Positions 43,574-58,960 of a stretch of DNA of 64,000 bases are shown here, piece by piece; within the stretch, counting starts at the first letter, position 1, and every line of letters starts with the position of its first letter. The notes below the pieces were generated by a model. The model was not told the DNA's origin, did not search any database, and was given only the letters and a program-made list of their open reading frames with translations. The position numbers and the translations under genes were made by a program. Source of the DNA: a virus; IMG/VR virus record IMGVR_UViG_3300045918_000470, positions 13,798 to 77,797 of that record; one strand, 5' to 3'.

Positions 43574-45616
43574 TTAATACTTAATACTTCTTTTACCACT
43601 CTCGACGGTAAGGAAATATGTTTTATTAGTTGGGGTACCTGCTGACGCCATACCACCAGTAATTAATACTCTACCAAATGAAAGTAGTAAAGCTCTATGC
43701 TCGAAAAGGTTACTTGGCATGATTATAGGATCACTATATAAAATTGTATTACCAACTATTGTTAAAATATAGGCTTTATTTGATAATCCAGCCATATCCG
43801 TATTAGATGACCCACCAGTAATTAATACTCTACCATCTAATAGTACTGTTTGTTCATGCCCGAATAAATCCGTCGGAAGTATGTTGCTTTCAACATACGT
43901 GATCGTCGTTCCAGTAATAGTACCAATATAAGTTTTGTTTGCTGCGCCAGTAGAAGTAAATCCACCAGTAATAAGAATTCGACCATCATGAAGTTGAGAA
44001 ACTCTATGATAATATAATGAGCTTGGAAGAGGAGTACTAGTAGTTATAGTCATAGGAGTACCCAACCCATTATACTGAACTATTGCTGTAGTGTTTTGCG
44101 GTACTGAATTCTTGATACCACCCATAAATAATACTCGATTATCAGCTAATGTGATTTGTGAATACCCTACTGCCCCATTGTTGATCATTGGTAACATCCC
44201 ACTTTGACCAGGATTGGGTCCTGACCAATACCCGGCATTGAAAACTGATAAATCAGATCCGGTCCCATTAACTGAACCTTCACCAGATACTAGGAAAGCC
44301 TGCTCTCCGGTGTAATCAGGATGATTTAAAGGAGAAATTTTATAGGGAAGACCTCCATTAGTCATTGAAACATTAATACCAGCATTACTTGTGCTATTAG
44401 CAAATACATTCCCAGATATCTTGTAGAATTCCCCGACTGCTCCTTGAATCCCAGTAGTATCAAGAGCAAATTCATCAGTTGATAAGAATTGCATAGCGTG
44501 ATTAGCATACTCATATGTTAAGTTTGGACCAGCAACAAAAGTAACACTAGCAGTTGTAGCTAAATTAGGAAGGTTAAATGTTGTACTTCCATCACCAGCA
44601 CCATAAGTTGTACTAATAACAGCAAATAAAGCCGAGTACATAGTTCTTGAAATAGCTTGACCATTACATTCTAAGTAACCAGTTGGAATATTATTATATA
44701 GAACAATTGACCCAACTTCCGAATATGTATTTGATACTACAATATTCTTTAATTGTAAGAATGTTGTTTTCTTATAAGTACTTGTAATTGAATCCCAGAT
44801 AAGAAATTCATCTGTATTAGCCAGTATTGTTTTCTCAGTTAATGAATGTATATCTGTGCTACCACCAGAAATAGTAATATCGCCGGCACCAAGAATACTA
44901 GTACCATTAACAGTTTTAATATTAGTACCAGAAGCTAATGTAGCCTGTTTAGTAGCCAATGATGTACCAAGTAATGATTGAATAAAAGCTGTATTTGCCA
45001 TTTGAAAGGAATTATCATTAATTGGTATCGTTTTTTCATAAGAGGCATTTAACCCATTTCCATAATCATAAATTCGTAAAAAATCACAAATATTATTATG
45101 AGAGGAAATATCCCCAAAACCTGACGGTCCTTGAACATTTATACCGAATCCAAAAACACTAGGAGCTTGAAAAACAACAGTATCTGATGGTCGGAATACA
45201 ACACTCATCCCATAGCCAGTATTTTCAATACTTATCTCAGGAACATTACTAGCACTATTCAATCCAGTACCAATAGAGATTTGCCCATCATTTAAATCAA
45301 TATATGATCCACCATTTGTGTTTAATATAGAGACAATTCCATCTGTTTTGATTAACTGTGTAAATGTTTTCTGACCAGTTACATTTTGAACAGTATCAGT
45401 AGTAACAGCAGAAGTAACAGCAGATGTAACAAAAGCTGTTGTTGCAACCTTTGTTGTATTATCACCTGGTAAAGGTGTTGGTACAACGGGTGATGATGTG
45501 AATGTCTTAACACCATCAACAGTTTGTGCATCAAATATATTTACAGAACCTGCAAAATTGTCATCAAGTTCATCGTGTGATAATGCAGAACCTTTATTTC
45601 TTTTTAAAGTTATCAT
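43574..45616 (-). CDS. Fibre protein with tail-collar domain and Kelch-like propeller
   Basis: GYLECNGQAISRTMYSALFAVISTTYGAGDGSTTFNLPN; repeated H...L.DGRVLITGG. Confidence 0.85.
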   Translation of the reverse strand: MITLKRNKGSALSHDELDDNFAGSVNIFDAQTVDGVKTFTSSPVVPTPLPGDNTTKVATTAFVTSAVTSAVTTDTVQNVTGQKTFTQLIKTDGIVSILNTNGGSYIDLNDGQISIGTGLNSASNVPEISIENTGYGMSVVFRPSDTVVFQAPSVFGFGINVQGPSGFGDISSHNNICDFLRIYDYGNGLNASYEKTIPINDNSFQMANTAFIQSLLGTSLATKQATLASGTNIKTVNGTSILGAGDITISGGSTDIHSLTEKTILANTDEFLIWDSITSTYKKTTFLQLKNIVVSNTYSEVGSIVLYNNIPTGYLECNGQAISRTMYSALFAVISTTYGAGDGSTTFNLPNLATTASVTFVAGPNLTYEYANHAMQFLSTDEFALDTTGIQGAVGEFYKISGNVFANSTSNAGINVSMTNGGLPYKISPLNHPDYTGEQAFLVSGEGSVNGTGSDLSVFNAGYWSGPNPGQSGMLPMINNGAVGYSQITLADNRVLFMGGIKNSVPQNTTAIVQYNGLGTPMTITTSTPLPSSLYYHRVSQLHDGRILITGGFTSTGAANKTYIGTITGTTITYVESNILPTDLFGHEQTVLLDGRVLITGGSSNTDMAGLSNKAYILTIVGNTILYSDPIIMPSNLFEHRALLLSFGRVLITGGMASAGTPTNKTYFLTVESGKRSIKY

Positions 45617-45670
45617 TTATTGTCTCCAAAGTTTAACTGTGGTATTTTCTAACATAGTATTCCTTTTTGT

Positions 45671-46127
45671 TTATTTATAGGGATGCATCAGCAAGACCCA
45701 TCTACCTGTACCTACATTAACATCATTTTGAACTAATGTACCATATGTAGTTATAAGTGAAGCTATATTATTATATGTTGATGAAGATCCTCCATAAAAT
45801 AAAGAGTTTGTACCAACATCAGCACCTGCAGGTCTTTCCCTTGCGGAGCTTATATAAACCTCAGATTGTTTTAATATCATTAAAGTATCTATTATTGTGA
45901 GTGTGTTGATATTGGGTCAACCAAAGCAACACCTGCATCAAATACTGATTGACCTTCAGTTGCAATAAAATGATATTTTGCAGTACTAACTCCTGATAAT
46001 GCGTTATGTATAAATTCAGTAGTTGCTAACTGTAATGAACTATCCCCTGGTAACACAGTAGGTGCGTTGGTATGATAGCAAATGATGCCACATCCGTTAC
46101 GTGTAAATCTGTTGTATTAACTGCCAT
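45671..46127 (-). pseudogene. Decayed fibre/propeller gene
   Basis: MAVNTTDLHVTDVASFAIIP / frameshift / APTVLPGDSSLQLATTEFI...FIATEGQSVFD / frameshift / ...GADVGTNSLFYGG. Confidence 0.6.
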
Positions 46128-46131
46128 GTTA

Positions 46132-46761
46132 TTATCCTAATGTACCAAAGACGGAATCTCTAGTTGTTGTTGATTTTGCTGCTTCTGTTTCTTGTTCTGT
46201 CTTGATGTCATTAAATACAGATGTTAGATTACTAAAATCATATTCATCATTCGGAATTAATTCTTCTACTTCATCACGTGGATTATAGTTATAGATTCTA
46301 CATTTTAACATATAGACATTTTTCCCGTTACTTTCTGTGAACATATTACTTAGACCTGCAACCTCATCCTCAATACCTGTAACCTCAAATATCTTACCTC
46401 GATTTACACGGATAAGATCACCTACACATTGCATAATATTTTTAAAATCTGTAACATCATATATAGATTTCATATATTCTTTTGAAACCATGAGGTTGAT
46501 CGAGTCAGTAAACTGTAATCCAAATTTACTAAACATATCACCGGCATTATCAAATGATTCTGTATTTTCAGGATATACCATGATAGGAAAAACATCATTT
46601 GAATTAGATTTTCTATAGTTAAATTCATTAAAGATAATATTTCTTCCAATATTATCAATCTTAAAGTATTCAACCTGGATACCAAACTTGTCAATGAACT
46701 CTTTGCTTTGTCTGCTGAATAAATTGTATTCATTTGGGCTTGAGTTAAAGTTCCATGCCAT
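46132..46761 (-). CDS. gp14: Neck protein (head closure)
   Basis: EFIDKFGIQVEY, GDMFSKFGLQFTD, GDLI...IFEV, VFG C-terminus. Confidence 0.88.
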   Translation of the reverse strand: MAWNFNSSPNEYNLFSRQSKEFIDKFGIQVEYFKIDNIGRNIIFNEFNYRKSNSNDVFPIMVYPENTESFDNAGDMFSKFGLQFTDSINLMVSKEYMKSIYDVTDFKNIMQCVGDLIRVNRGKIFEVTGIEDEVAGLSNMFTESNGKNVYMLKCRIYNYNPRDEVEELIPNDEYDFSNLTSVFNDIKTEQETEAAKSTTTRDSVFGTLG

Positions 46762-46854
46762 ATGTACTCCTTCTTTTAGTTTATTTATAATTTAATCTAT
46801 TTCAAAGGTTCATTGTGTTATAATGTATTACACATTTATATATGAAGGAAACAT

Positions 46855-47244
46855 ATGTCAGTAGACACAAAATATAACCACCTACGTAATGGTACATTAT
46901 ATGGTGGAGCAACAATTGGTTGGTCAATTCAAGATGACGATACATTAATTACTGCATTAGCAAAATGTAATAATGTAGATCGTTTTGTAAAATCAGAAGG
47001 TAGAGTAATCGTTGATATGAGGATTAATAACTACATCGCTAATCCTGAAAAAAATACAAGCAAGTATGTTGCAGTTGTAACATTAGATGAGGTACGTGCA
47101 TTTTTGTATGAAAACTCCGAGCGTGTGTTCCCAGTATTAAATCGTGATGCTACTTTGCGAGCGATTGAGTCCGTCACGATGCGTGATTTTAATTATAATA
47201 CACATGCATTTATTACACAAGGTGTTTTTGACGAAATTCTTTAA
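46855..47244 (+). CDS. Hypothetical protein
   Basis: TALAKCNNVDRFVKSEGR conserved-looking phage motif; early promoter upstream. Confidence 0.6.
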   Translation: MSVDTKYNHLRNGTLYGGATIGWSIQDDDTLITALAKCNNVDRFVKSEGRVIVDMRINNYIANPEKNTSKYVAVVTLDEVRAFLYENSERVFPVLNRDATLRAIESVTMRDFNYNTHAFITQGVFDEIL

Positions 47245-47363
47245 TTTATAAAATCTATAAATAAAACATAAGTAGTTCTTAAGGTACATTGTGTTATAAT
47301 ACACGTACATAAAAAGAATAAACGAATTTTGTATCATGAATTAGTTTAAAACATTAATTTGTT

Positions 47364-47386
47364 TTTAAGCAAAGTTATGATATAAT
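47364..47386 (+). promoter_or_regulatory. Early promoter of tRNA array 1 (second copy at 47278-47300; late CATAAATA near 47392)
   Basis: tttaagcaaagttatgatataat. Confidence 0.7.
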
Positions 47387-47426
47387 GTTCACATAAATAA
47401 AAACAATAAACACATAGGAGAATATC

Positions 47427-47564
47427 ATGTTTGGTATCGAAACAAGCGCATCATCAACAATCGCAACATATCGTGATACCAGCATTATCTCTTATACATC
47501 TACGTCTGATATTACCGATGCTTCGGCATCATATGAGATTAACTCGGCGGAAGCCAACTCCTAA
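47427..47564 (+). CDS. Leader peptide 1 (45 aa) upstream of tRNA array 1
   Basis: AGGAG RBS; MFGIETSASSTIATYRDTSIISYTSTSDITDASASYEINSAEANS; hairpins immediately after the stop. Confidence 0.75.
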   Translation: MFGIETSASSTIATYRDTSIISYTSTSDITDASASYEINSAEANS

Positions 47565-47710
47565 CAGAAAGTTATTTTGACTTTCTGTGATGGAAAGTCA
47601 AAATGATTCCTCAAGCACATACACGTGCAAAATTAATCAATTTTTCTTTTCATCTTGGATAAAAGTGTCGTATTCGTTTACGGCGTTCCATATTCGTATG
47701 GTCTTTTTTC
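47565..47710 (+). promoter_or_regulatory. Competing hairpins and terminator-like element between leader 1 and the tRNAs
   Basis: Hairpins 47565-47587 and 47571-47607 are mutually exclusive; ccata-ttcg-tatgg plus T tract at 47688-47710. Confidence 0.55.
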
Positions 47711-47738
47711 TCAAGTTTTACTCAAACAACTTGTTCGT

Positions 47739-47828
47739 GGGCGGTTAATCAACACTAACTGGATAGGTGCATCGGCTGTAACCCGGTTTCTTTATGGACT
47801 CTTGGTTCGAATCCAAGGCTGCCCACCA
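47739..47828 (+). tRNA. tRNA-Tyr(GTA)
   Basis: ctGTAac loop, long variable arm, GGTTCGAATCC, CCA; extra bases before the D arm. Confidence 0.8.
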
Positions 47829-47836
47829 TCATATAT

Positions 47837-47911
47837 GTCACCATGGAGAAGGGGTTATCTCGTCACACTTTCACTGTGAAGTCAGGGGTTCAAATCCCCT
47901 TGGTGATACCA
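47837..47911 (+). tRNA. tRNA-Glu(TTC)
   Basis: Cloverleaf, ctTTCac loop, CCA. Confidence 0.85.
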
Positions 47912-47915
47912 AATT

Positions 47916-47990
47916 GGGGATATAGTATAATTGGGAATACATAAGACTTGCAATCTTGAGTCGAGGGTTCGAATCCCTCTATCTCCACCA
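47916..47990 (+). tRNA. tRNA-Ala(TGC)
   Basis: G3-U70 pair, ctTGCaa loop, CCA. Confidence 0.9.
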
Positions 47991-48003
47991 AGAATTTAAA
48001 AAT

Positions 48004-48078
48004 GGTCTTGTAGCTCAGAGGCAGAGTGCTCCGTTGTCAGCGGAAGGGTCGGGATTTCAAAATTCCTCAGGATCGCCA
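48004..48078 (+). tRNA. tRNA-Asp(GTC)
   Basis: ttGTCag loop, GCCA end. Confidence 0.85.
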
Positions 48079-48085
48079 AAAATAT

Positions 48086-48159
48086 AGTTCTATAGCTCAA
48101 TGGCAGAGTAATCCCTTGATAAGGGATAGACGAAGGGTCAGTACCTTCTAGAACTACCA
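48086..48159 (+). tRNA. tRNA-Ile(GAT)
   Basis: ttGATaa loop, CCA. Confidence 0.85.
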
Positions 48160-48164
48160 AACAT

Positions 48165-48257
48165 GGGCAATTGGCAGAAATGGAATAATTGCACTAGTCT
48201 TGAAAACTAGCAGAGCGTCAAAAACTCTTGTTGGATCGTACCCAACATTGCCCGCCA
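48165..48257 (+). tRNA. tRNA-Ser(TGA)
   Basis: ctTGAaa loop, long variable arm, GCCA. Confidence 0.85.
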
Positions 48258-48262
48258 AAATA

Positions 48263-48343
48263 TGTTGTTTGTAGTATAATAGTTATTACAGGAGAGAACA
48301 GTGGACACTCCAGATACGGTGCAATTCCGTCGAGCGACAACCA
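48263..48343 (+). tRNA. tRNA-like RNA with enlarged anticodon loop (His/GTG-like?)
   Basis: Acceptor, D and T arms and CCA intact; ggag-agaacaGTGgaca-ctcc anticodon region is abnormal. Confidence 0.5.
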
Positions 48344-48349
48344 AAATAT

Positions 48350-48425
48350 GCCGATTTAGCTCATTCAGCAGAGCAGTAGTTTTGTAAACTACAGGTGAGG
48401 GGAGCAAAGCCTCTAATCGGCACCA
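48350..48425 (+). tRNA. tRNA-Thr(TGT)
   Basis: ttTGTaa loop, CCA. Confidence 0.85.
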
Positions 48426-48504
48426 GATTGATTTTTATGAAGGGTCTATTTCTTAAATGAAAATCTTTCACAAAAGTTAATAAATTCATAGAATTTAATC
48501 TAAC

Positions 48505-48527
48505 TTTAAGCTATACTATGTTATAAT
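48505..48527 (+). promoter_or_regulatory. Early promoter of tRNA array 2
   Basis: tttaagctatactatgttataat. Confidence 0.7.
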
Positions 48528-48596
48528 GTCTGTACATAAAAAGAAAAACATAGTTTTTCAAAACATAAATAAAACAATAAAAACAAGGAGCACACA

Positions 48597-48767
48597 ATGT
48601 GTAACACAAGCAGCAACGTACAAAATGTTAATGTCAATGTATTAAATCGCAATAGCGTGCTCCGTGCTAGTCAACTGAATTTGGCAGGGTTAAGCTTAGG
48701 GCAAAATCAAGCAGTTCAAAGTTGGTTAAATACTTCTAATTCTCTTTTACAGAATACTTCAATCTAA
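48597..48767 (+). CDS. Leader peptide 2 (56 aa) upstream of tRNA array 2
   Basis: AAGGAG RBS; MCNTSSNVQNVNVNVLNRNSVLRASQLNLAGLSLGQNQAVQSWLNTSNSLLQNTSI; hairpin at 48774-48801. Confidence 0.75.
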   Translation: MCNTSSNVQNVNVNVLNRNSVLRASQLNLAGLSLGQNQAVQSWLNTSNSLLQNTSI

Positions 48768-48875
48768 GTTTTCTTTAAAGGGGATTTAGTTCCCCTTTAA
48801 ATGATAAACAAAAACCAATCATTTAAAACACTAAATTCTCTATTGTTAATTCAATTTTTTCTTAGAATTCTCAGT

Positions 48876-48963
48876 TCTCTACAGCGCGCAAGGTGTGCGA
48901 GGCGACTGTTAATCGTTTGGCGAGAGTTAAATCCGATGCTTGGTTCGATTCCAAGGTGGAGAG
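48876..48963 (+). tRNA. tRNA-Asn(GTT), long variable arm, no CCA, extended acceptor stem
   Basis: ctGTTaa loop, U1-A72, G73; flanks pair over 48859-48978. Confidence 0.7.
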
Positions 48964-48997
48964 CTGAGAATTCAAGAAATCTATTAGATAACTTCGC

Positions 48998-49070
48998 TCA
49001 AGAGTAGGCAAACTGGTATGCCAACGGTCTTTGAAGCCGTAGATTGTAGGTTCGAACCCTGCCTCTTGAG
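48998..49070 (+). tRNA. tRNA-Gln(TTG), no CCA, extended acceptor stem
   Basis: ctTTGaa loop, U1-A72; 20 bp perfect stem over 48985-49082. Confidence 0.75.
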
Positions 49071-49137
49071 CGAAGTTATCTATTTAGAATATAGGACGTA
49101 TTACTTTGAAAATGATAAATAAAGTATATATTTATCT

Positions 49138-49941
49138 AGGAACTACACTTTACATTATGATAACTTAATCAATAGAGCTAAAGAAAGAACTCTTGAAAGT
49201 TACACCGAATCTCATCATATAATACCACGTTGTTTAGGTGGTACAAATGATAAAGATAATTTAGTTGACTTAACAACAAGAGAACATTTTATAGCTCATT
49301 TGTTATTGTGGAAGATACATCCTAATCATTATGGTTTAGTTAAAGCTATTTCTATAATGTGTGTTCAATCTACTAATATGAACGAAAATCGTTCTTGTAA
49401 TAGAATGTATGGATGGTTAAAGGAAAAATTTTCAGAAGCTCAATCTTTATCTCAATCGGGTGATGGTAATAGTCAATTCGGTACTATGTGGATTCATAAT
49501 TTAGATTTAAAAGAGTCTAAGAAGATACCTAAATCTGATGAAATACCTTTAGGATGGAATAAAGGTCGTAAAATTAAATTCGATCTTGAAAATATAAAGA
49601 AAGAAATTAAAGATCAAATCAAAGAGAGAAACAAAAATAAACTTGAAGAAAAACTTCAAGAAAAGAGAAATTCTTTCCTAGATATATTTGAAGCTTATAA
49701 AGCTTATGGATACAAATATGTTATTGAAAATTTTGATTATGATAAATCTGAAGGTGTTTTATATTCAAAATTGAAAACTCTTTTTGGAGAATTTAAAAAA
49801 CAATATGAAGTGAAAATTGATAGATTTTATATTTGTCAAGAATGTAAATGTACCTTCACGAAAAAAGGGAAGTCTACAGATAATTTTAAATGTTGTAGTA
49901 GAAAATGTTCTGGTTTATTGAATAGACCGAAATTTGGATAA
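49138..49941 (+). CDS. HNH homing endonuclease, apparent start codon lost (AGG at the Met position)
   Basis: Frame is open from 49123: NYTLHYDNLI...ESHHIIPRCLGG...LTTREHFIAH; GNSQFGTMWIHN. Confidence 0.75.
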   Translation, partial: RNYTLHYDNLINRAKERTLESYTESHHIIPRCLGGTNDKDNLVDLTTREHFIAHLLLWKIHPNHYGLVKAISIMCVQSTNMNENRSCNRMYGWLKEKFSEAQSLSQSGDGNSQFGTMWIHNLDLKESKKIPKSDEIPLGWNKGRKIKFDLENIKKEIKDQIKERNKNKLEEKLQEKRNSFLDIFEAYKAYGYKYVIENFDYDKSEGVLYSKLKTLFGEFKKQYEVKIDRFYICQECKCTFTKKGKSTDNFKCCSRKCSGLLNRPKFG

Positions 49942-49946
49942 AATAT

Positions 49947-50023
49947 GCTCGTCTAGTGCAACGGTAGACGCATCAGACTTAAAATCTGTCCAGGTGTGGG
50001 TTCGAATCCCACGGCGAGCACCA
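49947..50023 (+). tRNA. tRNA-Leu(TAA), short variable arm
   Basis: ctTAAaa loop, CCA. Confidence 0.85.
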
Positions 50024-50034
50024 AAATTATAAAT

Positions 50035-50108
50035 GCTTCCTTAGTGAAATGGTATCACACCTTCCTTCCAAGTAGGAGTCGTCGGATCGTTACCGACAGG
50101 ACGCACCA
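50035..50108 (+). tRNA. tRNA-Gly(TCC)
   Basis: ctTCCaa loop, CCA. Confidence 0.8.
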
Positions 50109-50110
50109 AT

Positions 50111-50185
50111 GCCAGATTAACTCAAAAGTAGAGTGTTTCCCTTACAAGGAGAAAGTAGTAGGAGCGTTACCTACATCTGGTACCA
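50111..50185 (+). tRNA. tRNA-Val(TAC)
   Basis: ctTACaa loop, CCA. Confidence 0.85.
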
Positions 50186-50191
50186 AAAAAT

Positions 50192-50267
50192 GTTCCTGTA
50201 CTCCAACGGCAGAGGGAATCGGCTCAAACCCGATATAGTGATGGTTCGAATCCATCCAGGAACACCA
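50192..50267 (+). tRNA. tRNA-Leu(CAA), short variable arm
   Basis: ctCAAac loop, CCA. Confidence 0.85.
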
Positions 50268-50275
50268 ATAATTAT

Positions 50276-50361
50276 GCTCGAGTGATGGAACGGAATACAT
50301 ACTGGTCTTAGAAGCCAGCGCTCTTAGAAGATTGTGGGGTCAGGACCCACCTCGAGTACCA
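50276..50361 (+). tRNA. tRNA-Leu(TAG)
   Basis: ctTAGaa loop, long variable arm, CCA. Confidence 0.85.
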
Positions 50362-50367
50362 AAATAT

Positions 50368-50451
50368 GCATAAATGGTGGAACGGTATACACATTGGTCT
50401 AAGAAGCCAACGCCGAAAGGATTGAGAGTTCAAGTCTCTCTTTATGCACCA
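50368..50451 (+). tRNA. tRNA-Leu(AAG)
   Basis: ttggt-ctAAGaa-gccaa, long variable arm, CCA. Confidence 0.85.
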
Positions 50452-50460
50452 AAAATTTAT

Positions 50461-50536
50461 TCCGGTGTAGTCAAATAGTAAGGACGGGTAGCTGTTAACT
50501 ATCACAATGCAGGGGCGGAACCTGTCACCGGAGCCA
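50461..50536 (+). tRNA. tRNA-Asn(GTT)
   Basis: ctGTTaa loop, GCCA. Confidence 0.85.
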
Positions 50537-50543
50537 AAATATA

Positions 50544-50615
50544 TGTTGATTAGCTTAAGTAGCAAAGCGGTGGATTGCAAATTCATGACCATCCGTTCGA
50601 TTCGGATATGGGACT
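50544..50615 (+). tRNA. tRNA-Cys(GCA), degenerate acceptor stem, no CCA
   Basis: ttGCAaa loop, T arm atccgTTCGAttcggat, U discriminator at 50615. Confidence 0.6.
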
Positions 50616-50687
50616 ATCCTACATATAACTAGCCTTCTCGTGGCGTAGGGTGTAATTAGGTCAATAGACTGAAACTAGTAAGTTATA
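50616..50687 (+). ncRNA. HDV-like (theta-type) self-cleaving ribozyme candidate
   Basis: P1 atcctac/gtagggt, P3 gcc/ggc, L3 ttctcgt, P2 tataacta/t(a)agttata; starts right after the tRNA discriminator. Confidence 0.6.
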
Positions 50688-50768
50688 ATTTTGCTAACTA
50701 AGTAAAGGATAGATAATAGTAGTTCGCTTATAAATAATAGTATATATACTTTTCGGAGATAGAATACT

Positions 50769-51542
50769 ATGGATTATAAACGAACTTACGACCTATTGGT
50801 TTTACGAGCACAAAACAGAGTTAACAACGGATACACAGAAAATCACCATATCATACCTGAGTGTATGGGTGGTTCAAATGATAAAACCAACATGGTCAGA
50901 CTAACAGCTAGAGAACACTTTGTTGCTCACCAACTTTTAGTTAAAATATACCAAAAAGAGTATGGACTGATTATAGCGGTAAACATGATGTGTATAGGTC
51001 AAGAGGAACGTAAAAGAGCCAACAACCGTATGTATAGTTGGTTACGTGAGCGTTTTGTTAGTGAACAAAGTAGAAACCAAACAGGTGAAGGTAATTCGCA
51101 GTTCGGAACTATGTGGATTCACAACTTAGAGGAACAAGTAAGTAAGAAGATTCCTAAAGATGACCTACTTTTTTGGGAACAACAAGGTTGGGAACGAGGA
51201 CGGGTAGTCAATTTTACAAACAAACTACTTTCGATTAGAGTTAAAGCGGAAAAAGAAGCTCGTGTTATTGAGGAAAAGGCGTTGAAAGTCAAAGAAAAAC
51301 TAAGACTGAACAAGGCAAATATAGTTAAAAAACAAAAACTATCCTCGGATAGAAAAATTTTAGCTGAAGAGTATTATTGTATTTACCGAGCGGTAGGATT
51401 TGTAGAGTTTACGAAATTAACAGGTTACAGCAAATCTCTTGAATGTTTAATTATGTTCTTTAAGCGAAATGTAGAACATTATGTATCATTTGACCATAAA
51501 GAAGTAAAAAAAAAAAGGAAAGTAAATCAATCGGGTGATTGA
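50769..51542 (+). CDS. HNH homing endonuclease
   Basis: MDYKRTY...ENHHIIPECMGG...LTAREHFVAH; GNSQFGTMWIHN; 3' end overlaps tRNA-Ser. Confidence 0.88.
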   Translation: MDYKRTYDLLVLRAQNRVNNGYTENHHIIPECMGGSNDKTNMVRLTAREHFVAHQLLVKIYQKEYGLIIAVNMMCIGQEERKRANNRMYSWLRERFVSEQSRNQTGEGNSQFGTMWIHNLEEQVSKKIPKDDLLFWEQQGWERGRVVNFTNKLLSIRVKAEKEARVIEEKALKVKEKLRLNKANIVKKQKLSSDRKILAEEYYCIYRAVGFVEFTKLTGYSKSLECLIMFFKRNVEHYVSFDHKEVKKKRKVNQSGD

Positions 51543-51607
51543 AACAGTTTGCTAAACTGTGTGTACCTTAAATGCGGTATTCGGGTCGGTACCGATGCTT
51601 TCCTCCA
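51517..51607 (+). tRNA. tRNA-Ser(GCT)
   Basis: acagt-ttGCTaa-actgt, long variable arm, CCA. Confidence 0.8.
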
Positions 51608-51622
51608 TATCCAAAACTTTAC

Positions 51623-51699
51623 GCTCTGTTAGCTTAGTGGTCTAAAGCAGTCGGCATATAACCGACAGACTGTGGGTTCGATTCCCACACTTCCCGCCA
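51623..51699 (+). tRNA. tRNA-Ile(TAT)-like, acceptor stem largely unpaired (pseudo or chimeric)
   Basis: gtcgg-caTATaa-ccgac; gctctgt/acttccc mismatched. Confidence 0.55.
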
Positions 51700-51704
51700 G
51701 ATAT

Positions 51705-51782
51705 AGGGTATTAGTTCAATGGTAGAATAACGGATTCCAAACCCGTAGATCGTTTTGGGTTCAATTCCCCGATACCCTGCCA
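51705..51782 (+). tRNA. tRNA-Trp(CCA)
   Basis: ttCCAaa loop, GCCA. Confidence 0.8.
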
Positions 51783-51814
51783 AATATAAATTAAATAAAA
51801 AAGAAGGATAAACG

Positions 51815-52273
51815 ATGTTTAGTGATAAAGAGTTACAGGGCATTTTTGACTATATCAATAATAATCCCGAAGCTAAGATTTACTTAGGTTGTGACTCTCT
51901 GAGATCTAAACATAAGAAAGTTAAATTTGTAACAGTCTTAGTCGTTTATCAAAAAGATAAATCAAAAATTTTTAAGAACATCATTTACGAAAAAATAACT
52001 GATGCAAAATTATCTCGTCCATTTAATCGTATGATGAGGGAAGTACAATCTGTAACAGAATTGTATATGTTGTTAGAAGATGTGTTGATATACAGAGACT
52101 TTGAAATTCATATCGACGTATCGCCTGATCCAATAAATGGTTCTAATGTTGCATACAACTCGGCAAAAGGAATGGTTTACGGAATGACAGGTGTAGAACC
52201 TGTATGTAAACCAGACTCGTGGGCAGCATCACATTGTGCCGATAGATTCACTAAAGATACAAGAAAGCGTTAA
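51815..52273 (+). CDS. RNase H-like YkuK/DUF458 family protein
   Basis: IYLGCDS, RMMREV, EIHIDV, NGSN, KPDSWAASHCAD. Confidence 0.8.
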   Translation: MFSDKELQGIFDYINNNPEAKIYLGCDSLRSKHKKVKFVTVLVVYQKDKSKIFKNIIYEKITDAKLSRPFNRMMREVQSVTELYMLLEDVLIYRDFEIHIDVSPDPINGSNVAYNSAKGMVYGMTGVEPVCKPDSWAASHCADRFTKDTRKR

Positions 52274-52327
52274 TTCTTTAAGGTTATTATAAATATTTTA
52301 TTATACAATACACTTAAAGGATAAACA

Positions 52328-52774
52328 ATGGATAAGTTCAAAGATTACATCATTCCTAAAATGAATGAAGCTGGAGATTACAAAGTCTATATGATAGACA
52401 AAGAGTTTTGGCTTGCATATGGCGACGGTAGTGGTACAACAGCACAAGTTCCAAATATGGATAGTTTCTTAACAAATAAAAGTGGTGATAAGAATTACGA
52501 TAGTATCGTAGATAGTGTCACTAAGAAATTTGTAACATTTAATGAACCACAAATGACTAAGAAATCATCAGATAAGATGACTAAATATTCTTTGTACTAT
52601 TTACCAGCGTATAAACATTCCGATGTTAGACAAGGTAAGATTGAAGCATGGGGCGGAAACATCAACCCGTTTACAACTTATTACATGTTAGTAATTCAAG
52701 GTGAAAAGACAGATATTATTCAGTTTTTCAAAACAGCTGGTGAAGCAAAAGCTTACGTTAATTCACTTTCTTAA
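52328..52774 (+). CDS. Hypothetical protein
   Basis: 148 aa; MDKFKDY...MNE N-terminus. Confidence 0.65.
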   Translation: MDKFKDYIIPKMNEAGDYKVYMIDKEFWLAYGDGSGTTAQVPNMDSFLTNKSGDKNYDSIVDSVTKKFVTFNEPQMTKKSSDKMTKYSLYYLPAYKHSDVRQGKIEAWGGNINPFTTYYMLVIQGEKTDIIQFFKTAGEAKAYVNSLS

Positions 52775-52952
52775 GTGTTTTGGGTTTATTAGTAAATCCC
52801 GCTCAGTCAAAAAACGATTAGTAATCAGCGCTTTAGCGGGAACCGTAGAAGTCTCAACTATAATAAACAGAGGGAATTGGCGGAACAGTTATGATGTTCT
52901 GGAAAGGGATACCACCACGATAATATAAAAAATCGGACAAAAACATCACTAT

Positions 52953-53027
52953 GCCGTTTTAGCTCAATGGATAGAGTACGGGTCTACGAAACCTGTGATA
53001 CTGGTTCGAATCCAGTAAATGGCACCA
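52953..53027 (+). tRNA. tRNA-Arg(ACG)
   Basis: ctACGaa loop, CCA. Confidence 0.88.
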
Positions 53028-53127
53028 AGTTCTTATATTAAATTTTAATGGAGATGTAATATAAGCACTTTATGTTGTATTAATGTTCATTGATGTATAA
53101 TGTTACATAACAATATGAAGGACTTAC

Positions 53128-53562
53128 ATGAAGAATGAATTAACACCGGAGCAATTATCAGATATCAATGTTATTGTAGAATCGCAAAAAGGTTTAGGAT
53201 TAATTTCTAAAGCAAAAGAATTTTATACTGGTGAACTAGATTTAGTTCAAGAAAAATATATCAAAGTGAATCTTCCTGATTCTGAAGAAAAATTCAAATC
53301 AGGGAATGGTGAAGGTATCTGGGCGTATCCAGTAACTGAAGCAGACGAACTCATCTGTAATAATGGTGGTGTTGGTGAAACCTTTGATGTATATACAATG
53401 AATGATTGTATCATGTATCCTTTTACATGTGCAACAATCATCAAAGTACGAAATACTGGTGCTGAAACCCGTCCAGTTCTTGATTACGATTGGATGGACA
53501 ATATCATTAAAGTATCTTCTAATGGTGAGTATTCGCTACATGAAATGCTTCAAGAGGCGTAA
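53128..53562 (+). CDS. Hypothetical protein
   Basis: 144 aa; GNGEGIW motif; early promoter. Confidence 0.65.
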   Translation: MKNELTPEQLSDINVIVESQKGLGLISKAKEFYTGELDLVQEKYIKVNLPDSEEKFKSGNGEGIWAYPVTEADELICNNGGVGETFDVYTMNDCIMYPFTCATIIKVRNTGAETRPVLDYDWMDNIIKVSSNGEYSLHEMLQEA

Positions 53563-53571
53563 GCCTCACAT

Positions 53572-53641
53572 GCCGATACAAAAGGATAGAATGAGACTTC
53601 GAATCTCTAGTATGCAGGTTCGAATCCTGCTGTTGGCTCCA
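53572..53641 (+). tRNA. tRNA-Arg(TCG), truncated D arm
   Basis: ctTCGaa loop, GGTTCGAATCC, TCCA. Confidence 0.6.
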
Positions 53642-53668
53642 AACTTTATAATAAAAATTAGGTGTGAT

Positions 53669-53878
53669 ATGAATATTAAAGAAATGGTAAAAGATAACAA
53701 ACAAGTCATTTTTGAATTCTATAGGAAGAGTGAATTGTGGTACAAAACTGAGTGTGGTTTTATGTTCCCTGTCCCTATAGAAGATTGTGGTGATGGAACA
53801 TTTTTACCTAAAGATAAAGCTATGATGTTTATGCGATATATTCGTAAACAGATTGAACAATTAAAAGATGAAACATGA
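53669..53878 (+). CDS. Conserved hypothetical phage protein
   Basis: LWYKTECGFMFPVPIEDCGDGTFLPKDKAMMFMRYIRK; start ATG 53669. Confidence 0.7.
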   Translation: MNIKEMVKDNKQVIFEFYRKSELWYKTECGFMFPVPIEDCGDGTFLPKDKAMMFMRYIRKQIEQLKDET

Positions 53879-54186
53879 AAACACTAAGAGAGAAATTCTT
53901 AATCAATTCTGAAGATACCGGTAGATTTATCGTGACATCAATTAGAACTGGTAAGAAATATTTTGTAGAAGCAATAGGTGACCCACATATTGAATGGGGT
54001 TCGGTAGACCAATCAACTGGCAAGTTTAATGTCAAAAAAGGTTGGAAGAAAAACAAAGGTTCTATAGAGAAAGAAGAATCTATGATTAACACAGAAAATG
54101 GATTTGAAAAGATTCATGACCTCAAAGCTGGTGAAAGTCCGTTAATTTATATAGATTCATTAGATTCTAAATACCCAACAAAATAA
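53875..54186 (+). CDS. Conserved hypothetical phage protein
   Basis: DTGRFIVTSIRTGKKYFVEAIG...WG...GSI...ENGF. Confidence 0.7.
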   Translation: MKTLREKFLINSEDTGRFIVTSIRTGKKYFVEAIGDPHIEWGSVDQSTGKFNVKKGWKKNKGSIEKEESMINTENGFEKIHDLKAGESPLIYIDSLDSKYPTK

Positions 54187-54304
54187 AGGTAGTTGATATG
54201 TCACAGCTAAACGCAGTCTAAAGAAAAGAATTAAAAACCATATCCTATATAACTCTGGTATATCTATCAATGACAAGCGAGTTATAAAAGGTATTGGTAA
54301 GTTT

Positions 54305-54529
54305 ATGGATTCACAAGGTTTGTCCTTAATATTCATTTTAGATTTATTGAACAATGAAAATTGTCTAGTTGACTGGGTTGATTTCATTGATTATACTATA
54401 GAAAAGAAATGGAATACAACTCAGACATTTTCTAAAATCGAAGAAGCATTAGTTGATGTATTTGGTCGTGATTACACTGAGCAGATACTTCTTAGACTTA
54501 GATATTACTTAACAAAAAAATATAGTTAA
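54305..54529 (+). CDS. Hypothetical protein (5' end possibly frameshifted; frame open from about 54197)
   Basis: Track ORF; the upstream ATG at 54198 is out of frame. Confidence 0.45.
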   Translation: MDSQGLSLIFILDLLNNENCLVDWVDFIDYTIEKKWNTTQTFSKIEEALVDVFGRDYTEQILLRLRYYLTKKYS

Positions 54530-54688
54530 TTTTTATTAGATTATTGCGATACCACTTAATAAATATTTAAGTTACGATGTGTTATAATGTACTTTTAGAT
54601 AACAATATAAGGATTAAATCATGAAGGCGAAAACTGAAACCTAAGTTACCTTGACGAAAGTTAAAATTATGGTAACACGAGGTTCAAC

Positions 54689-55480
54689 ATGAACGGATTG
54701 TGGAAAGAGAATGTAGGTGGTTGGAATCATAAAGATACCAGACGAAAAAAACAAACACGTAACAACATCTTCCGAGATAAGGGTCGTGCGTTACTTAAAG
54801 TTTACGATGCTAAGACTAAAATGGTTACTGAAAAATGTGACCATAATATCTACCGTCGTGAAAATGAACAAGTTATAGTATATAAGCCTCGTGCAATGAA
54901 ACCTTTGGTTCAAGTCACTAATGCTTATAAAGCTTTGATTGAATATATCTCTGGGTATAAAGAAGTGTTCTATGAGATGAAACACACTATTGGAGAAGAA
55001 GTAATCGTTCGTACATATAGTAGAATGGATTCTATTACCAAGATGAAATATGTTACTATCTATTATGATGAGAATGAAAAATTTTACTGGCGTAAAACCA
55101 TGTATGATGTTAAAACTCGTCTACCATTAGAGAAAGTTTTGAAACTCGATAGAACACAAAGTAGAAGTTTGAAAATGATTTCTCAAAACAAACTCTCACT
55201 TGAGGTAAAACTCGATTGGGAGAAAGAGAAAAAGTATAGAGAAACAGAACATATCAGCGAGTTTTATACTTATGATATTAAAGAATACCTTTACGGAAAA
55301 CTTCTTCCTGATTGGAAACGCTATACATTATACAATGATGGGAAGCGTCGTAAGATTGGTCAAGAGATTGCAAATGGCACTGATAGAGCTATCATTCGTG
55401 ATTGGATATCTAAAGGTGATTGGGATAAAGTTATCTCAACTCATGCATATTCAAAAAGCATTTCTTGGTTCGTTCATTAA
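54689..55480 (+). CDS. Hypothetical basic protein
   Basis: 263 aa ORF with GAGG RBS. Confidence 0.65.
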   Translation: MNGLWKENVGGWNHKDTRRKKQTRNNIFRDKGRALLKVYDAKTKMVTEKCDHNIYRRENEQVIVYKPRAMKPLVQVTNAYKALIEYISGYKEVFYEMKHTIGEEVIVRTYSRMDSITKMKYVTIYYDENEKFYWRKTMYDVKTRLPLEKVLKLDRTQSRSLKMISQNKLSLEVKLDWEKEKKYRETEHISEFYTYDIKEYLYGKLLPDWKRYTLYNDGKRRKIGQEIANGTDRAIIRDWISKGDWDKVISTHAYSKSISWFVH

Positions 55481-55722
55481 TCTTATTTTAAGGTTATTAT
55501 GATATAATACATGTATCAAAAAGAAAACAAATAGTTCCTCATTGATTGAGGAATTAGTTAAAATATTTAATTGATTTTTAAGGTTATGTATGATATAATA
55601 CATATACAAAGCAGGAAATTGTAACGAGTGCATTTAGATGTATTGTTTACAATTTCCTGACCATGATAGTGAGGACTAGCTATCCCAATATCCGTCAGGC
55701 AATTATAGTATATATTTGTTAT

Positions 55723-55798
55723 CATGATTGTAAGCTCAGTTGGTTAGAGCTATCGGGTAAACTCCGATGTGCGTGGGTTCGAGTCCCATTAATCTTGT
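55723..55798 (+). tRNA. tRNA-like RNA with non-canonical anticodon loop
   Basis: D arm agctcagtttggttagagct, T arm gtgggTTCGAgtcccat; loop gtaaact; no CCA. Confidence 0.45.
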
Positions 55799-56000
55799 CG
55801 ATAACTCAAAAAACGTCTGAATATGCATAAGGTGAGGTACAAGTAGCCCTGCATTGTTAGAAGATATGCGAAACATGAAAAAGCGTACATAATAACCTAC
55901 GAGTGTGATGGTGCATACCTGGCATTGAGTTGGGAGGTTGTCGGGATCGAAGCCGACATAGGTGAAATTTGTACGTAATATCATGAACAATGTGAGAAAT

Positions 56001-56051
56001 AGGTAACATACAGCAATCACACCCAATTTTATGGAAAAATAGCGTTACCTG
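56001..56051 (+). ncRNA. CAGCAA stem-closed element 1
   Basis: aggtaac-ataCAGCAA...gttacct. Confidence 0.6.
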
Positions 56052-56066
56052 ATAATGTTTTAGATT

Positions 56067-56135
56067 AGGAAATATTCAGCAAAAAATATTTAAATATCAA
56101 ACTCAAACTTTGAAGCTAAAATAAAAATTTCCTGA
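56067..56135 (+). ncRNA. CAGCAA stem-closed element 2
   Basis: aggaaat-attCAGCAA...atttcct. Confidence 0.55.
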
Positions 56136-56154
56136 TCTAAGACATTTATGTCTG

Positions 56155-56333
56155 AACGTGTCAAAAAAGTAATTATAAACGATGGAAGTGCTTTCTTAAA
56201 TGATGCACACGCCTTAAACATACACTAGCAGTAGCGTTATCGACGGATAGCAAATACAAAGTAGTAGGTCGATTTTACAGTCAGTGTCCTAGGAAACGCT
56301 AGATGGTCAATATGATTACTTTTTTGACACGTT
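56155..56333 (+). ncRNA. Putative structured RNA closed by a 23 bp stem
   Basis: aacgtgtcaaaaaagtaattata / tatgattacttttttgacacgtt. Confidence 0.5.
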
Positions 56334-56335
56334 AT

Positions 56336-56396
56336 AGAAAGCATACAGCAAATCAAACAAACTTTCACTTTTAATGAAAATAAGATCGCTTTCTGA
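56336..56396 (+). ncRNA. CAGCAA element 3 with Lys(TTT) anticodon stem-loop
   Basis: agaaagc-ataCAGCAA...tttca-ctTTTaa-tgaaa...gctttct. Confidence 0.6.
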
Positions 56397-56403
56397 TTTA
56401 TAT

Positions 56404-56480
56404 TGCAGGGTAGAGCAGTTCGGTAGCTTGCAAGGTTCATACCCTTGAGGTCACTGGTTCAAATCCAGTTCCTGCGTCCA
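56404..56480 (+). tRNA. tRNA-Met(CAT), initiator-like body
   Basis: gcagggtagagcagttcggtagc, ttCATac loop, CCA. Confidence 0.8.
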
Positions 56481-56484
56481 AGAA

Positions 56485-56578
56485 GGTAAAGTCGTCTAAC
56501 TGGTTAGGACGGTTCCCTTAAGTGATATTCGTATTATTTAAGGGAACAATGTGTGTTCGAACCACACCTTTACCAACA
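56485..56578 (+). ncRNA. tRNA-shaped RNA with anticodon loop replaced by a 16 bp UUCG hairpin
   Basis: ggtaaag/ctttacc acceptor, D and T arms; gttcccttaagtgata-ttcg-tattatttaagggaac. Confidence 0.6.
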
Positions 56579-56652
56579 TATGATAAGATTAATTTAAATC
56601 CTTAATAAGGTTTTAAGGTTCTTTACTGTATAATACATATACAAATTATTAT

Positions 56653-56730
56653 GCCCAGTTAGCTAAGCGGATTTAAAGCGTCGAGTTGCAACCTCGAAGA
56701 TCGGGAGTTCAAATCTCTCACTGGGCTCCA
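56653..56730 (+). tRNA. tRNA-Cys(GCA)
   Basis: ttGCAac loop, TCCA. Confidence 0.85.
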
Positions 56731-56804
56731 TTGTATATTTTTATGTTCATAAATTGAACATAAAAATATTCAAAACGTTAAATTGAATATAAAAACCTTC
56801 AAAA

Positions 56805-56919
56805 TTGAACCATACAGCAACCCAAAACTTTGTGTCGGACGTGCAACTCGTTCCTCTCCACCATCTTATATGGAGAGGTAGATCAGGTAGTCGACCAAAA
56901 GTGCAAAAATCGGTTTCAG
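56805..56919 (+). ncRNA. CAGCAA element 4 with permuted tRNA domain (YrlA/Y-RNA-like)
   Basis: T arm ggacg-tgcaact-cgttc, closed acceptor stem ctctcca/tggagag, then a D-arm-like segment. Confidence 0.6.
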
Positions 56920-57245
56920 ATATACATGAATAATCCATTAATATAAGGATTATTCATGACCTTCAAATCACACCTTTAAAACAAAGACCTCCTTTTCAAA
57001 AACAATCAAGTAAAAATGTTTAAAACATCAGCCGGTTCCGATAAATGTACTAGGTTACTCCTGATAAAATTGCACAAGCATATTCACGTTTAAAATTCGG
57101 TCCTAACAAAGGAAGATCATTTATACTCGAAGATGCACGTCATCAAAAATTTGATGGGTTTTTCACGCATCTTTGAATACAAACGGGGTTTGTAGGTTAT
57201 ATTAAGTTTATTATGATATAATATGTGTAAGATAGAAGGATTAAT

Positions 57246-57659
57246 ATGAATATTATACCGGCAGTTCTCATTGGTAAACAATTTGATGTTCCTGAGTTTG
57301 GATTTGATATAAACGAGTCATTGTTAATGACTGAAGAATGCATACAAAATAAGTACGGTTTTATATTATGGACATTCATTAAGATGGGACATATAACAGA
57401 TCAGTATTTTCTTAATTATGTAAATGATGCAGTCAAAAACATTGAAAAATTTAAACCATCAACATATAGTGAGTTTATTGTTTGTGTGAATCCACTAACA
57501 AACAAAAATTTTGGTTGTATAACTGTTGGTATATCATCTATCAGAACACCAGATCATGAATTTTGGTTAGGTGTATGGACGTATATTCAGAATCCTGGAT
57601 TGTTTACATACAGATATGAGGATAAGATTTATCGTCTTATGCCTGAATTAAAACTATAG
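57246..57659 (+). CDS. Hypothetical protein
   Basis: 137 aa; early promoter and RBS. Confidence 0.6.
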   Translation: MNIIPAVLIGKQFDVPEFGFDINESLLMTEECIQNKYGFILWTFIKMGHITDQYFLNYVNDAVKNIEKFKPSTYSEFIVCVNPLTNKNFGCITVGISSIRTPDHEFWLGVWTYIQNPGLFTYRYEDKIYRLMPELKL

Positions 57660-57667
57660 AGGCACCT

Positions 57668-58207
57668 ATGAAATTCAAGAAACTAATATTTGAAAGTTTT
57701 GATATTGTACCTATTACCGAAAAAAGACTTAATAAATCAGATATAATTAAAATTATCTCTTCTAAATTAAGAGAACAAAAAAATTCTGATTATGACATAG
57801 AATATACAATCAATGTTTTAGATTCATATAAATTTTTATTCGGTTATAGAAAAACAATAAACAATAATGATTATCTGTTTATGTATAATAAAAAAATGAA
57901 CTTTTTTGAACTTCATTTTTTTTATCTTGATGATCTCGAATCAAATGGTGAAGATATTCAAGCTCAAGATAATAGTATTAATGTGTTTTCATACATGATG
58001 AGTATATGTTTAATATTGTTAAAAGATAATAGACCCGTTAGGATAATATCCCCTAGTAAGAAGAGAACATTATTTTATACAAAAATATCTAATAAAATAA
58101 TTAAAAAATATAATTTAGATTATATTGCGGTTATTAAGGACGATTGTATAGAATTTCTAAAATCAAAGGGAAAAACTGATATTGTGGAATCATTTTTGCG
58201 AAAGTAA
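57668..58207 (+). CDS. Hypothetical protein, possible internal head protein
   Basis: MKFKKLIFE N-terminus; very AT-rich. Confidence 0.55.
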   Translation: MKFKKLIFESFDIVPITEKRLNKSDIIKIISSKLREQKNSDYDIEYTINVLDSYKFLFGYRKTINNNDYLFMYNKKMNFFELHFFYLDDLESNGEDIQAQDNSINVFSYMMSICLILLKDNRPVRIISPSKKRTLFYTKISNKIIKKYNLDYIAVIKDDCIEFLKSKGKTDIVESFLRK

Positions 58208-58260
58208 AAATGATTTAAGTTTATTATGATATAATTGTTATATTAATTAGAAGGAAAGAT

Positions 58261-58755: not shown

Positions 58756-58960
58756 AGTTGGTACTAAATGTATCGTTGGGTTTTATCAGAATATTCTTCT
58801 TGATATTACAGGAATAACTAAAGATAAAAAACGTTATATAGTAACATTTACTGTTCAAGATCCTTTTGCATCAAGAAGTATCTATGAGTTTCCTATAAAA
58901 GATTTCGATATGATGTTCAGTGTTGCACGATTAAATGTTTTCTTGAGATGCAATTATTAA
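58742..58960 (+). CDS. Small hypothetical protein (MAKYKVGTKC)
   Basis: AGGAG RBS; similar N-terminus to the next ORF. Confidence 0.55.
   Translation: MAKYKVGTKCIVGFYQNILLDITGITKDKKRYIVTFTVQDPFASRSIYEFPIKDFDMMFSVARLNVFLRCNY

Follow-up and report, generated by a model that had tools for sequence, protein, structure and literature searches.

Phages have been known for over five decades to carry tRNA genes, whose function continues to be debated, the proposals being codon compensation, the decay of host tRNAs and escape from anticodon nucleases. Translation-apparatus genes are controlled by tRNA charging in the case of the pheM leader of pheST and of T-box riboswitches. In the enterobacteria, multivalent leader-peptide attenuators are represented by the thr leader (Thr and Ile), ilvGMEDA (Ile, Leu and Val), trpL, hisL, leuL and pheL (PMC1183508, PMC3082878). 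The tRNA clusters of T4, T5 and related phages have been discussed for their role against tRNA-cleaving defences (PMC10264068, PMC11555353, PMC11464382). The nearest published case to the one reported here is the trn operon of Anabaena PCC 7120, a tRNA array that is induced under translational stress and whose control has been attributed to the repressor TrcR (PMC8421152, PMC10272220). Here we examined a stretch of 64,000 nucleotides of viral DNA (hereafter the window; positions 13,798 to 77,797 of IMG/VR record IMGVR_UViG_3300045918_000470, forming the final 64 kb of a viral contig of 77.8 kb), in which a short open reading frame (ORF), leader 2, precedes a block of tRNA genes, array 2, and a paralogous cassette carries its own leader 1 and array 1. 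Comparative evidence supports a sensing interpretation: leader 2 is probably a translated, ribosome-sensed and attenuator-like gauge of tRNA supply, which would gate the transcription or the survival of array 2 RNA.

Under this interpretation the locus would share with pheM and the T-boxes the tying of a decoding component's expression to the availability of the matching tRNA. Unlike the element in the window, however, the pheM leader acts on a synthetase and relies on a single amino acid, and T-boxes bind uncharged tRNA directly and need no ORF. With the Anabaena trn operon it has in common a supernumerary tRNA array, which in Anabaena is switched on under impaired translation; that operon, in contrast, lies on a cyanobacterial plasmid under the protein repressor TrcR, and no leader peptide or attenuation is mentioned in PMC8421152 or PMC10272220. 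The locus also resembles the T4/T5-type clusters, being part of a T4-like myovirus in which tRNA blocks are interspersed with homing endonucleases and in which the replacement of depleted host tRNAs is a plausible use. Searching the full-text literature for tRNA operons or phage tRNAs in combination with leader peptides or attenuation, we found no published precedent, and neither "leader" nor "attenuation" occurs in PMC10264068, which deals with phage tRNAs and host defences.

We scored the match between leader codons and array anticodons under strict wobble rules, using the codon usage of the phage's own long ORFs as background. Array 2 reads 42 of the 55 leader 2 codons (expected fraction 0.33, p 9e-11), whereas array 1 reads 5 of the 55 (expected 0.36). 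The proximal uninterrupted block of array 2 (48876-50609) is by itself able to read 33 of these codons against an expected fraction of 0.25 (p 3e-8). The opposite preference was seen for leader 1, 29 of whose 44 codons are read by array 1 (37 if U34 is allowed to read whole four-codon boxes) and 5 by array 2. When all 412 six-frame ORFs of at least 35 codons on the contig were ranked, leader 2 came out as the best match for array 2 and third from the bottom for array 1, and leader 1 headed the array 1 ranking and closed that for array 2. In 20,000 nucleotide shuffles the observed match was never equalled, and a 2x2 test of leaders against arrays gave p 8e-12. The proposal in the initial annotation of this DNA that two leaders each fit their own array beyond chance is thus upheld by the contingency test and by the cross-ranks, and the enrichment withstands the comparison with shuffled and short ORFs that had been named as its check. 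As expected of an attenuator, leader 2 is rich in codons whose decoding reports on the product that would be regulated. An automated scan placed on top all five leaders available to us, namely those of the window and of two further phage contigs described below (L001 and L021). In contrast, the same scan of four cultured-phage tRNA regions (T5-like, Seunavirus, Karamvirus and a Vibrio phage; ∼70 tRNAs) returned no upstream ORF below p 0.01, and the few best-scoring control candidates listed lack a Shine-Dalgarno (SD) sequence.

Leader 2 is composed of N12, S9, L9, V6, Q6, T3, A3, G2, R2, C1, W1 and I1, and D, E, Y, K, F, H and P are absent. Serine is encoded by AGC (four), AGT (two), TCT (two) and TCA (one), arginine by CGC and CGT, and leucine by TTA (five) and by TTG, CTC, CTG and CTT (one each). 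These counts are the same as those made earlier, and the layout that the initial annotation had described was also recovered: a promoter, an A-rich motif and AAGGAG ahead of a 56-amino-acid ORF, as for leader 1, then an 11-bp hairpin after the stop codon and a downstream motif common to both cassettes (Table 1). The extended -10 element stands ∼70 nt ahead of the ORF, and the promoter and 5' untranslated region (UTR) are paralogous to those of leader 1. Leader 2 is therefore, like an attenuator leader, a short ORF with SD and ATG placed between a promoter and the tRNA genes to be regulated. No copy of the phage's consensus promoter lies within array 2, the next one after 48519 being at 54580, which speaks against the circumstance that the annotators had considered fatal to their idea, namely that internal promoters drive array 2. 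None of the leaders matches a PHROG family.

We searched viral contigs with an alignment of the neck protein and found four IMG/VR contigs of one phage (L001-L004), whose neck protein is 64% identical to that of the window phage and which have both cassettes; the four are identical in both leader regions and are represented below by L001. This was the only relative lineage with cassettes in that search, a single-sequence search of viral contigs with the neck protein having given no match, and the more distant neck-protein matches (L005-L009) have no tRNAs nearby. A metagenome scan with the neck-protein alignment and scans of genome contigs gave no matches, viral-contig scans with alignments of leader 2 and of ORF-103 revealed nothing new, and three contigs matching the hairpin pattern (L014, L016 and L018) were set aside as unrelated and due to chance. 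The L001 orthologue of leader 2 (6276-6419, minus strand) has 47 codons and is 27 nt (9 codons) shorter, owing to in-frame gaps of 6, 15 and 6 nt. The SD, the ATG, the last six codons and the hairpin stem (identical) have been kept, and over the 47 aligned codons 24 are identical, 8 synonymous and 15 nonsynonymous, with no excess of third-position changes. Despite this divergence 38 of the 46 residues fall within the array-2 amino-acid set, and membership of that set runs from 38/46 to 51/56 across five leader-2 homologues. Protein searches identified three of the homologues (P0006-P0008; 57-58 amino acids, 49-51 residues in the set) as well as a homologue of leader 1 (P0010). Leader 1 of L001, with 41 codons, can barely be aligned to the window copy, and 34 of its 40 residues are in the array-1 set.

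In metagenome contigs from vent, sediment and mat samples a natural leader-1 variant occurs, whose 138-nt ORF has acquired 20 substitutions but no stop codon. The 93 nt behind it (47565-47657) show a single substitution, the ORF thus changing far faster than the switch region. This comparison used assembled contigs, and uncovered parts and a 56-nt skip (48814-48871) were not counted as evidence. Nine of the 11 amino-acid changes in the variant remain within the array-1 set, and random substitutions preserved the codon match of leader 1 in 0.9% of simulations. Since the variant keeps both the frame and the array-1 set, selection seems to act on the codons present and not on the peptide. An ATG and an SD are present in all five leaders, and we infer that leader 2 is translated. 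One case of co-variation was found: array 2 of the window includes a tRNA-Ser GCU and its leader 2 uses six AGY codons, while the three Ser codons of the L001 leader 2 are all TCN, with no AGY, and tRNA-Ser GCU was not found in the L001-type phage in the locus, in the 12 kb beyond or by BLAST against two records (38 and 76 kb). Because the L001-type records are fragments, this co-variation is only suggestive.

The end of the leader ORF and the sequence behind it can form mutually exclusive pairings, as is characteristic of attenuators, and the same arrangement, with one pairing using the end of the ORF, is present in L001. The 1:2 and 2:3 pairings are nearly equal in energy (-17.4 and -15.4 kcal/mol in the window, -16.0 and -15.7 kcal/mol in L001), the register being shifted in L001 to follow an additional loop A. 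Of the perfect hairpins of the 77.8-kb contig, hairpin 2:3 and both of the overlapping hairpins after leader 1 rank within the longest five, and in the latter (A and B) L001 has compensatory changes. All five leader regions fold better than shuffled sequences (z -4.2 to -7.3; leader 2, z = -5.2).

A third leader came from L021, a metagenomic contig found via its unusual Asn tRNA, which has three neighbouring genes in the same order as in the window. A near-consensus promoter and an SD precede an ORF of 38 codons in which N, I, T and K abound, and the array behind it encodes Lys (four), Ile, Asn, Ile and Thr (three), followed by three ORFs and Leu (two). This array, Leu AAG and Leu UAG included, reads 27 of the 37 codons of its leader (p 2e-7 with the window codon background), which has no significant match to either of the window's arrays. 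Behind the L021 leader is a canonical intrinsic terminator, a 14-pair hairpin (286-317) followed by T9, and CCCCC codons near the end of the leader pair with GGGGG of the terminator 5' arm in the minimum-energy fold. This is the classical arrangement: a ribosome at the end of the leader would mask the anti-terminator strand, and an upstream stall would leave that strand free. L021 also has a second mini-ORF of 12 codons (449-487), located between its terminator and first tRNA-Lys and closely alike in SD context, with a weak promoter-like site (407-436) ahead of it, and this unit could bypass or add to the attenuator.

The likeness to the enterobacterial attenuators lies in the promoter-proximal short ORF with its SD, in the enrichment of regulatory codons, in the exclusive hairpins that would be read by ribosome position and, for L021, in the hairpin and U-tract terminator. 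Unlike those systems, the genes regulated here would be tRNAs and not biosynthetic enzymes, the element is carried by a phage, the window copy has no U tract, and codons for ∼9 amino acids fill three quarters of the ORF in place of a short run. In a cmscan of 44000-64000 (E up to 1) neither cassette had a leader or T-box hit on the plus strand, and the sole Thr_leader hit was on the minus strand (47047-47213; 27.5 bits against a threshold of 55).

Drawing on these features, we propose that host RNA polymerase would start at the extended -10 element and that a ribosome would load at AAGGAG and read the 55 codons, three quarters of which need tRNAs encoded downstream (Asn, Leu, Gln, Val, Ser-AGY, Gly, Arg, Cys and Trp). 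With these tRNAs plentiful, the ribosome would reach the stop codon, unwinding and covering region 1; the 5' arm could therefore pair only with region 3, and the resulting hairpin 2:3 would act as the "off" signal by termination, pausing or processing. When any one of them is scarce, the ribosome would stall within the first ∼40 codons and region 1 would pair with region 2 once this is made, so that 2:3 would be blocked, region 3 would be held by the weak 3:4 helix, and transcription would enter the array. The net effect would be negative feedback, the set of tRNAs being made when the decoding of exactly those codons is slow, and cassette 1 would do the equivalent for Tyr, Glu, Ala, Asp, Ile, Ser-UCN and Thr. 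Ribosome stalling, the identity of the "off" structure and termination as output are what we infer from the observed ORF, its signals, the codon match and its specificity, the conservation and the competing structures. That 2:3 (B in cassette 1) would be the "off" form, and 1:2 (A) the one favoured by a lagging ribosome, is argued by analogy with L021.

Several observations weigh against this proposal. Array 2 reads a third of all codons, and the gauge would therefore be broad; the 13 unmatched codons of leader 2 are for Thr, Ala, Ser-UCN, Ile-AUC and Val (two GUY, one GUC). It had been claimed that the match extends down to synonymous codons: this stands insofar as six of the nine Ser codons are AGY, but the AGY versus TCN contrast between the leaders is a trend only and not significant (Fisher p 0.065), and the use of CGY for Arg is not significant alone (n = 2). 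Several array-2 tRNAs are low-scoring, and those for Ser GCU, Trp and Arg lie beyond the homing-endonuclease genes; a weak promoter-like site (50679) accompanies one of these genes. The lineages compared number only two to three. In another contig that shares the odd Asn tRNA, L022, a duplicated unit of promoter, SD and mini-ORF (8700-8800 and 10410-10470, minus strand; 19 and 32 codons with a Phe-rich N-terminus) stands ahead of two arrays, yet no tRNA-Phe is encoded; since these units mismatch their arrays, not every such mini-ORF obeys the codon-match rule. Finally, hairpin 2:3 is followed by TGATAAAC, with no U tract, and a terminator scan of the plus strand found no site after either window leader, so that the hairpin after leader 2 did not prove to be a recognisable intrinsic terminator. 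For these two reasons the hairpin as "off" output is unproven, and with the U-tract terminator absent we class the window copy as one that works like an attenuator and not as a proven canonical member. Perfect gene-end hairpins are scarce in this phage (17 of at least 8 bp on 77.8 kb) and none of the 17 has a U tract behind it (e.g. 4318-4339 and 42719-42743); canonical intrinsic terminators seem to be absent from the window phage, and hairpins free of a U tract may be its normal terminator style.

The missing U tract also bears on whether the translated, codon-matched leader has an output other than termination. Possible forms are RNA processing or stability, access of Rho to the G-poor spacer (48803-48868), or a switch of opposite polarity, in which smooth translation would open the RNA and yield positive feedback or a timing delay. 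The spacer is indeed nearly G-free, the first two tRNAs lie within long processing-like helices, and a ribosome stalled within the final ∼13 codons, themselves array-2 codons, would cover region 1 and promote 2:3, the opposite outcome to that proposed. However, L021 combines the same geometry with a canonical terminator, which fixes the polarity in L021, and an AAAGGGG core is common to the 5' arms of the L021 and window hairpins; we regard an output other than termination as unlikely, although worth keeping in mind. That the ORFs encode functional small low-complexity peptides, whose resemblance to the arrays reflects coincidence or a shared compositional bias, appears quite improbable. Gene callers did predict the metagenome homologues and the N-terminal half of leader 2 is fairly conserved, but each leader heads the 412 ORFs in the match to its own array and falls at or close to the bottom for the other array, the third pair (L021) has a different amino-acid set, the peptide sequence drifts while its composition stays, and neither PHROG families nor the cultured-phage controls gave a match. 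The better conservation of the hairpin region than of the ORF might instead point to an untranslated RNA element, such as a promoter-proximal structure or a processing signal, with an incidental open frame. We consider this very improbable in view of the SD and ATG in all five leaders, a length difference between the window and L001 (27 nt) that is a multiple of three, a frame that stays open after 20 substitutions (37% by chance) and a composition that is preserved in this frame only.

Table 1. Positions of leader 2, its candidate switch structures, array 2, cassette 1 and promoter copies in the window
Feature	Position	Strand	Comment
Extended -10 TGTTATAAT	48519-48527	+	One copy of the 13-copy phage promoter consensus
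Shared A-rich 5'-UTR motif	48563-48581	+	Near-identical copy at 47391-47410 ahead of leader 1, motif and SD together 47391-47420; kept in L001
Shine-Dalgarno AAGGAG	48585-48590	+	6 nt before ATG; kept in L001
Leader ORF 2	48597-48767	+	56 codons + TAA (48765-48767); ATG at 48597
Region 1	48736-48759	+	Leader codons 47-54; can pair with region 2
Region 2	48766-48789	+	Last two stop-codon bases, hairpin 5' arm and most of loop; pairs with region 1 or 3
Hairpin 2:3	48774-48801	+	11-bp perfect stem, 6-nt loop, -15.4 kcal/mol; starts 6 nt past stop
Hairpin 3:4	48796-48827	+	10 bp, weak, -5.9 kcal/mol; shares 5' strand with 3' arm of 2:3; 9-bp equivalent in L001
TTAATTCAATTTTTTCTT motif common to both cassettes	48846-48863	+	Leader-1 copy at 47633-47648; poorly kept in L001 leader 2
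tRNA-Asn (GUU, long variable arm)	48876-48964	+	ARAGORN; no encoded CCA
tRNA-Gln UUG	48998-49071	+	ARAGORN; no encoded CCA
Homing-endonuclease-like ORF	49300-49941	+	phrog_655; within array 2
tRNAs Leu UAA, Gly UCC, Val UAC, Leu CAA, Leu UAG, Leu AAG, Asn GUU, Cys GCA	49947-50609	+	
HNH homing endonuclease ORF	50769-51542	+	Within array 2
tRNA-Ser GCU (low-scoring), Ile UAU-like, Trp CCA	51517-51782	+	
tRNA-Arg ACG	52953-53027	+	Behind two ORFs, one of them RNaseH_like PF04308
Cassette 1	47292-48425	+	Two promoters, leader ORF 47427-47564, overlapping hairpins A and B, array 1
Hairpins A and B after leader 1	47565-47587 (A), 47575-47603 (B)	+	Overlapping, share a strand; A begins at stop codon
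Consensus promoter copies	46816, 47292, 47378, 48519, 54580, 55500, 55591, 57214, 58227, 58981, 60232, 60562		

All members of array 2 in the earlier tRNA list were present, with the caveat that six tRNAs of the array are recognised by the Rfam tRNA model and anticodon-loop reading only (Val UAC at 50111, Leu UAG at 50276, Asn GUU at 50461, Cys GCA at 50549, an Ile UAU-like tRNA at 51628 and an Arg UCG-like one at 53572) and that Ser GCU (51517-51607) is called only under relaxed ARAGORN thresholds. ARAGORN at default settings identified Asn (89 nt, with a long variable arm), Gln, Leu UAA, Gly UCC, Leu CAA, Leu AAG, Trp and Arg ACG. In the window array 2 is broken up by both homing-endonuclease genes along with several ORFs, whereas the matching Asn-to-Trp block in L001 is contiguous, and for this reason both homing-endonuclease genes look like insertions in the window phage. 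The RNaseH_like gene (PF04308; 51815-52273) embedded in the array-2 transcription unit has been kept in L001 (4351-4803, minus strand). The first GUU (Asn) tRNA has a variable region of ∼20 nt with a stem of only 3 bp and no encoded CCA, and the Rfam tRNA model is silent on it in the window. Copies that are 93-97% identical occur in four phage lineages, namely the window, L001 (6048-6134, minus strand), L021 (1169-1260) and L022 (7478-7566, minus strand). It appears to be an unusual, type-II-like Asn tRNA, its charging identity being putative. The flanks of the Asn (48862-48975) and Gln (48986-49083) tRNAs form long helices, that of Gln being a perfect 19-bp extension of the acceptor stem, discriminator included; judged by sequence, these helices look like a processing signal.

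Array 1 encodes Tyr, Glu, Ala, Asp, Ile GAU, Ser UGA, a His-like element and Thr, its Tyr gene (47743-47828) being called only under relaxed thresholds. In leader 1 the motif common to both cassettes provides the 3' strand of a long 3:4 helix. As possible terminators we considered a weak AT-only hairpin with a T run in this motif and, in cassette 1, a UUCG hairpin with a T run (47688-47710; -3.0 kcal/mol), and rejected both as too weak and poorly conserved in L001. Metagenome contigs (runs X6 and X8) join 48486, ahead of the leader-2 promoter, to 47279 in the promoter region of leader 1, with 10 other letters between, a junction that suggests a different order of cassettes, or recombination between the paralogous promoters, in relatives. 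Nothing comparable to these leaders goes with the window's remaining arrays, at 55.7-56.7 kb and 59.7-60.2 kb.

The source is an uncultured T4-like phage, as far as its genes indicate a myovirus with a gp23-type capsid: the capsid protein matches phrog_138 (T4 gp23-type) and shares 49% identity with its counterparts in Vibrio and Campylobacter T4-like phages. As in other T4-like phages with tRNA clusters, this capsid is accompanied by tRNA genes, here 20 by ARAGORN with extras seen by Rfam only, and by homing endonucleases, here two. No close relative was found among cultured phages, blastn against these matching tRNA genes only, and the stretch is present in public metagenome runs from wetland, pond, hydrothermal vent, sediment and microbial mat; RNA runs contained only 5-6% of its sampled words. 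The promoter consensus, of which there are 13 copies, reads TTAAT, ∼8 nt, TTTAAG, ∼9 nt, TRTGWTATAAT, with an extended -10 but no evident -35, as is known from Campylobacterota. Directly behind one copy is a 91-amino-acid ORF (60266-60541) with a CxxCH haem motif and Pfam cytochrome c matches below the curated cut-offs, which may be an auxiliary metabolic gene. The Campylobacterota-like promoter style would fit this cytochrome-c-like gene and the habitats.

We tentatively suggest that the cassette belongs to a diversifying family of phage "tRNA-pool gauges", in which each tRNA block would have a leader of its own, rewritten as tRNAs are gained or lost. The phage would in that case induce just those tRNAs whose host counterparts have been depleted, by tRNA-cleaving host immunity among other causes, and the cassette would serve as an inducible counter-defence; the Ser-GCU tRNA with its AGY codons and the N/I/T/K-rich leader of L021 are possible examples of such rewriting. 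If the sensing interpretation is true, the phage gauges decoding capacity codon set by codon set and responds with matching tRNAs, and classical attenuation would come to cover the supply of tRNAs as well as that of amino acids. With two cassettes in the same phage, cross-specific induction is predicted, limitation of Ile, Ser or Thr acting on cassette 1 and limitation of Asn, Leu or Gln on cassette 2. Such cassettes may also find use as compact, programmable sensors of specific tRNA pools.

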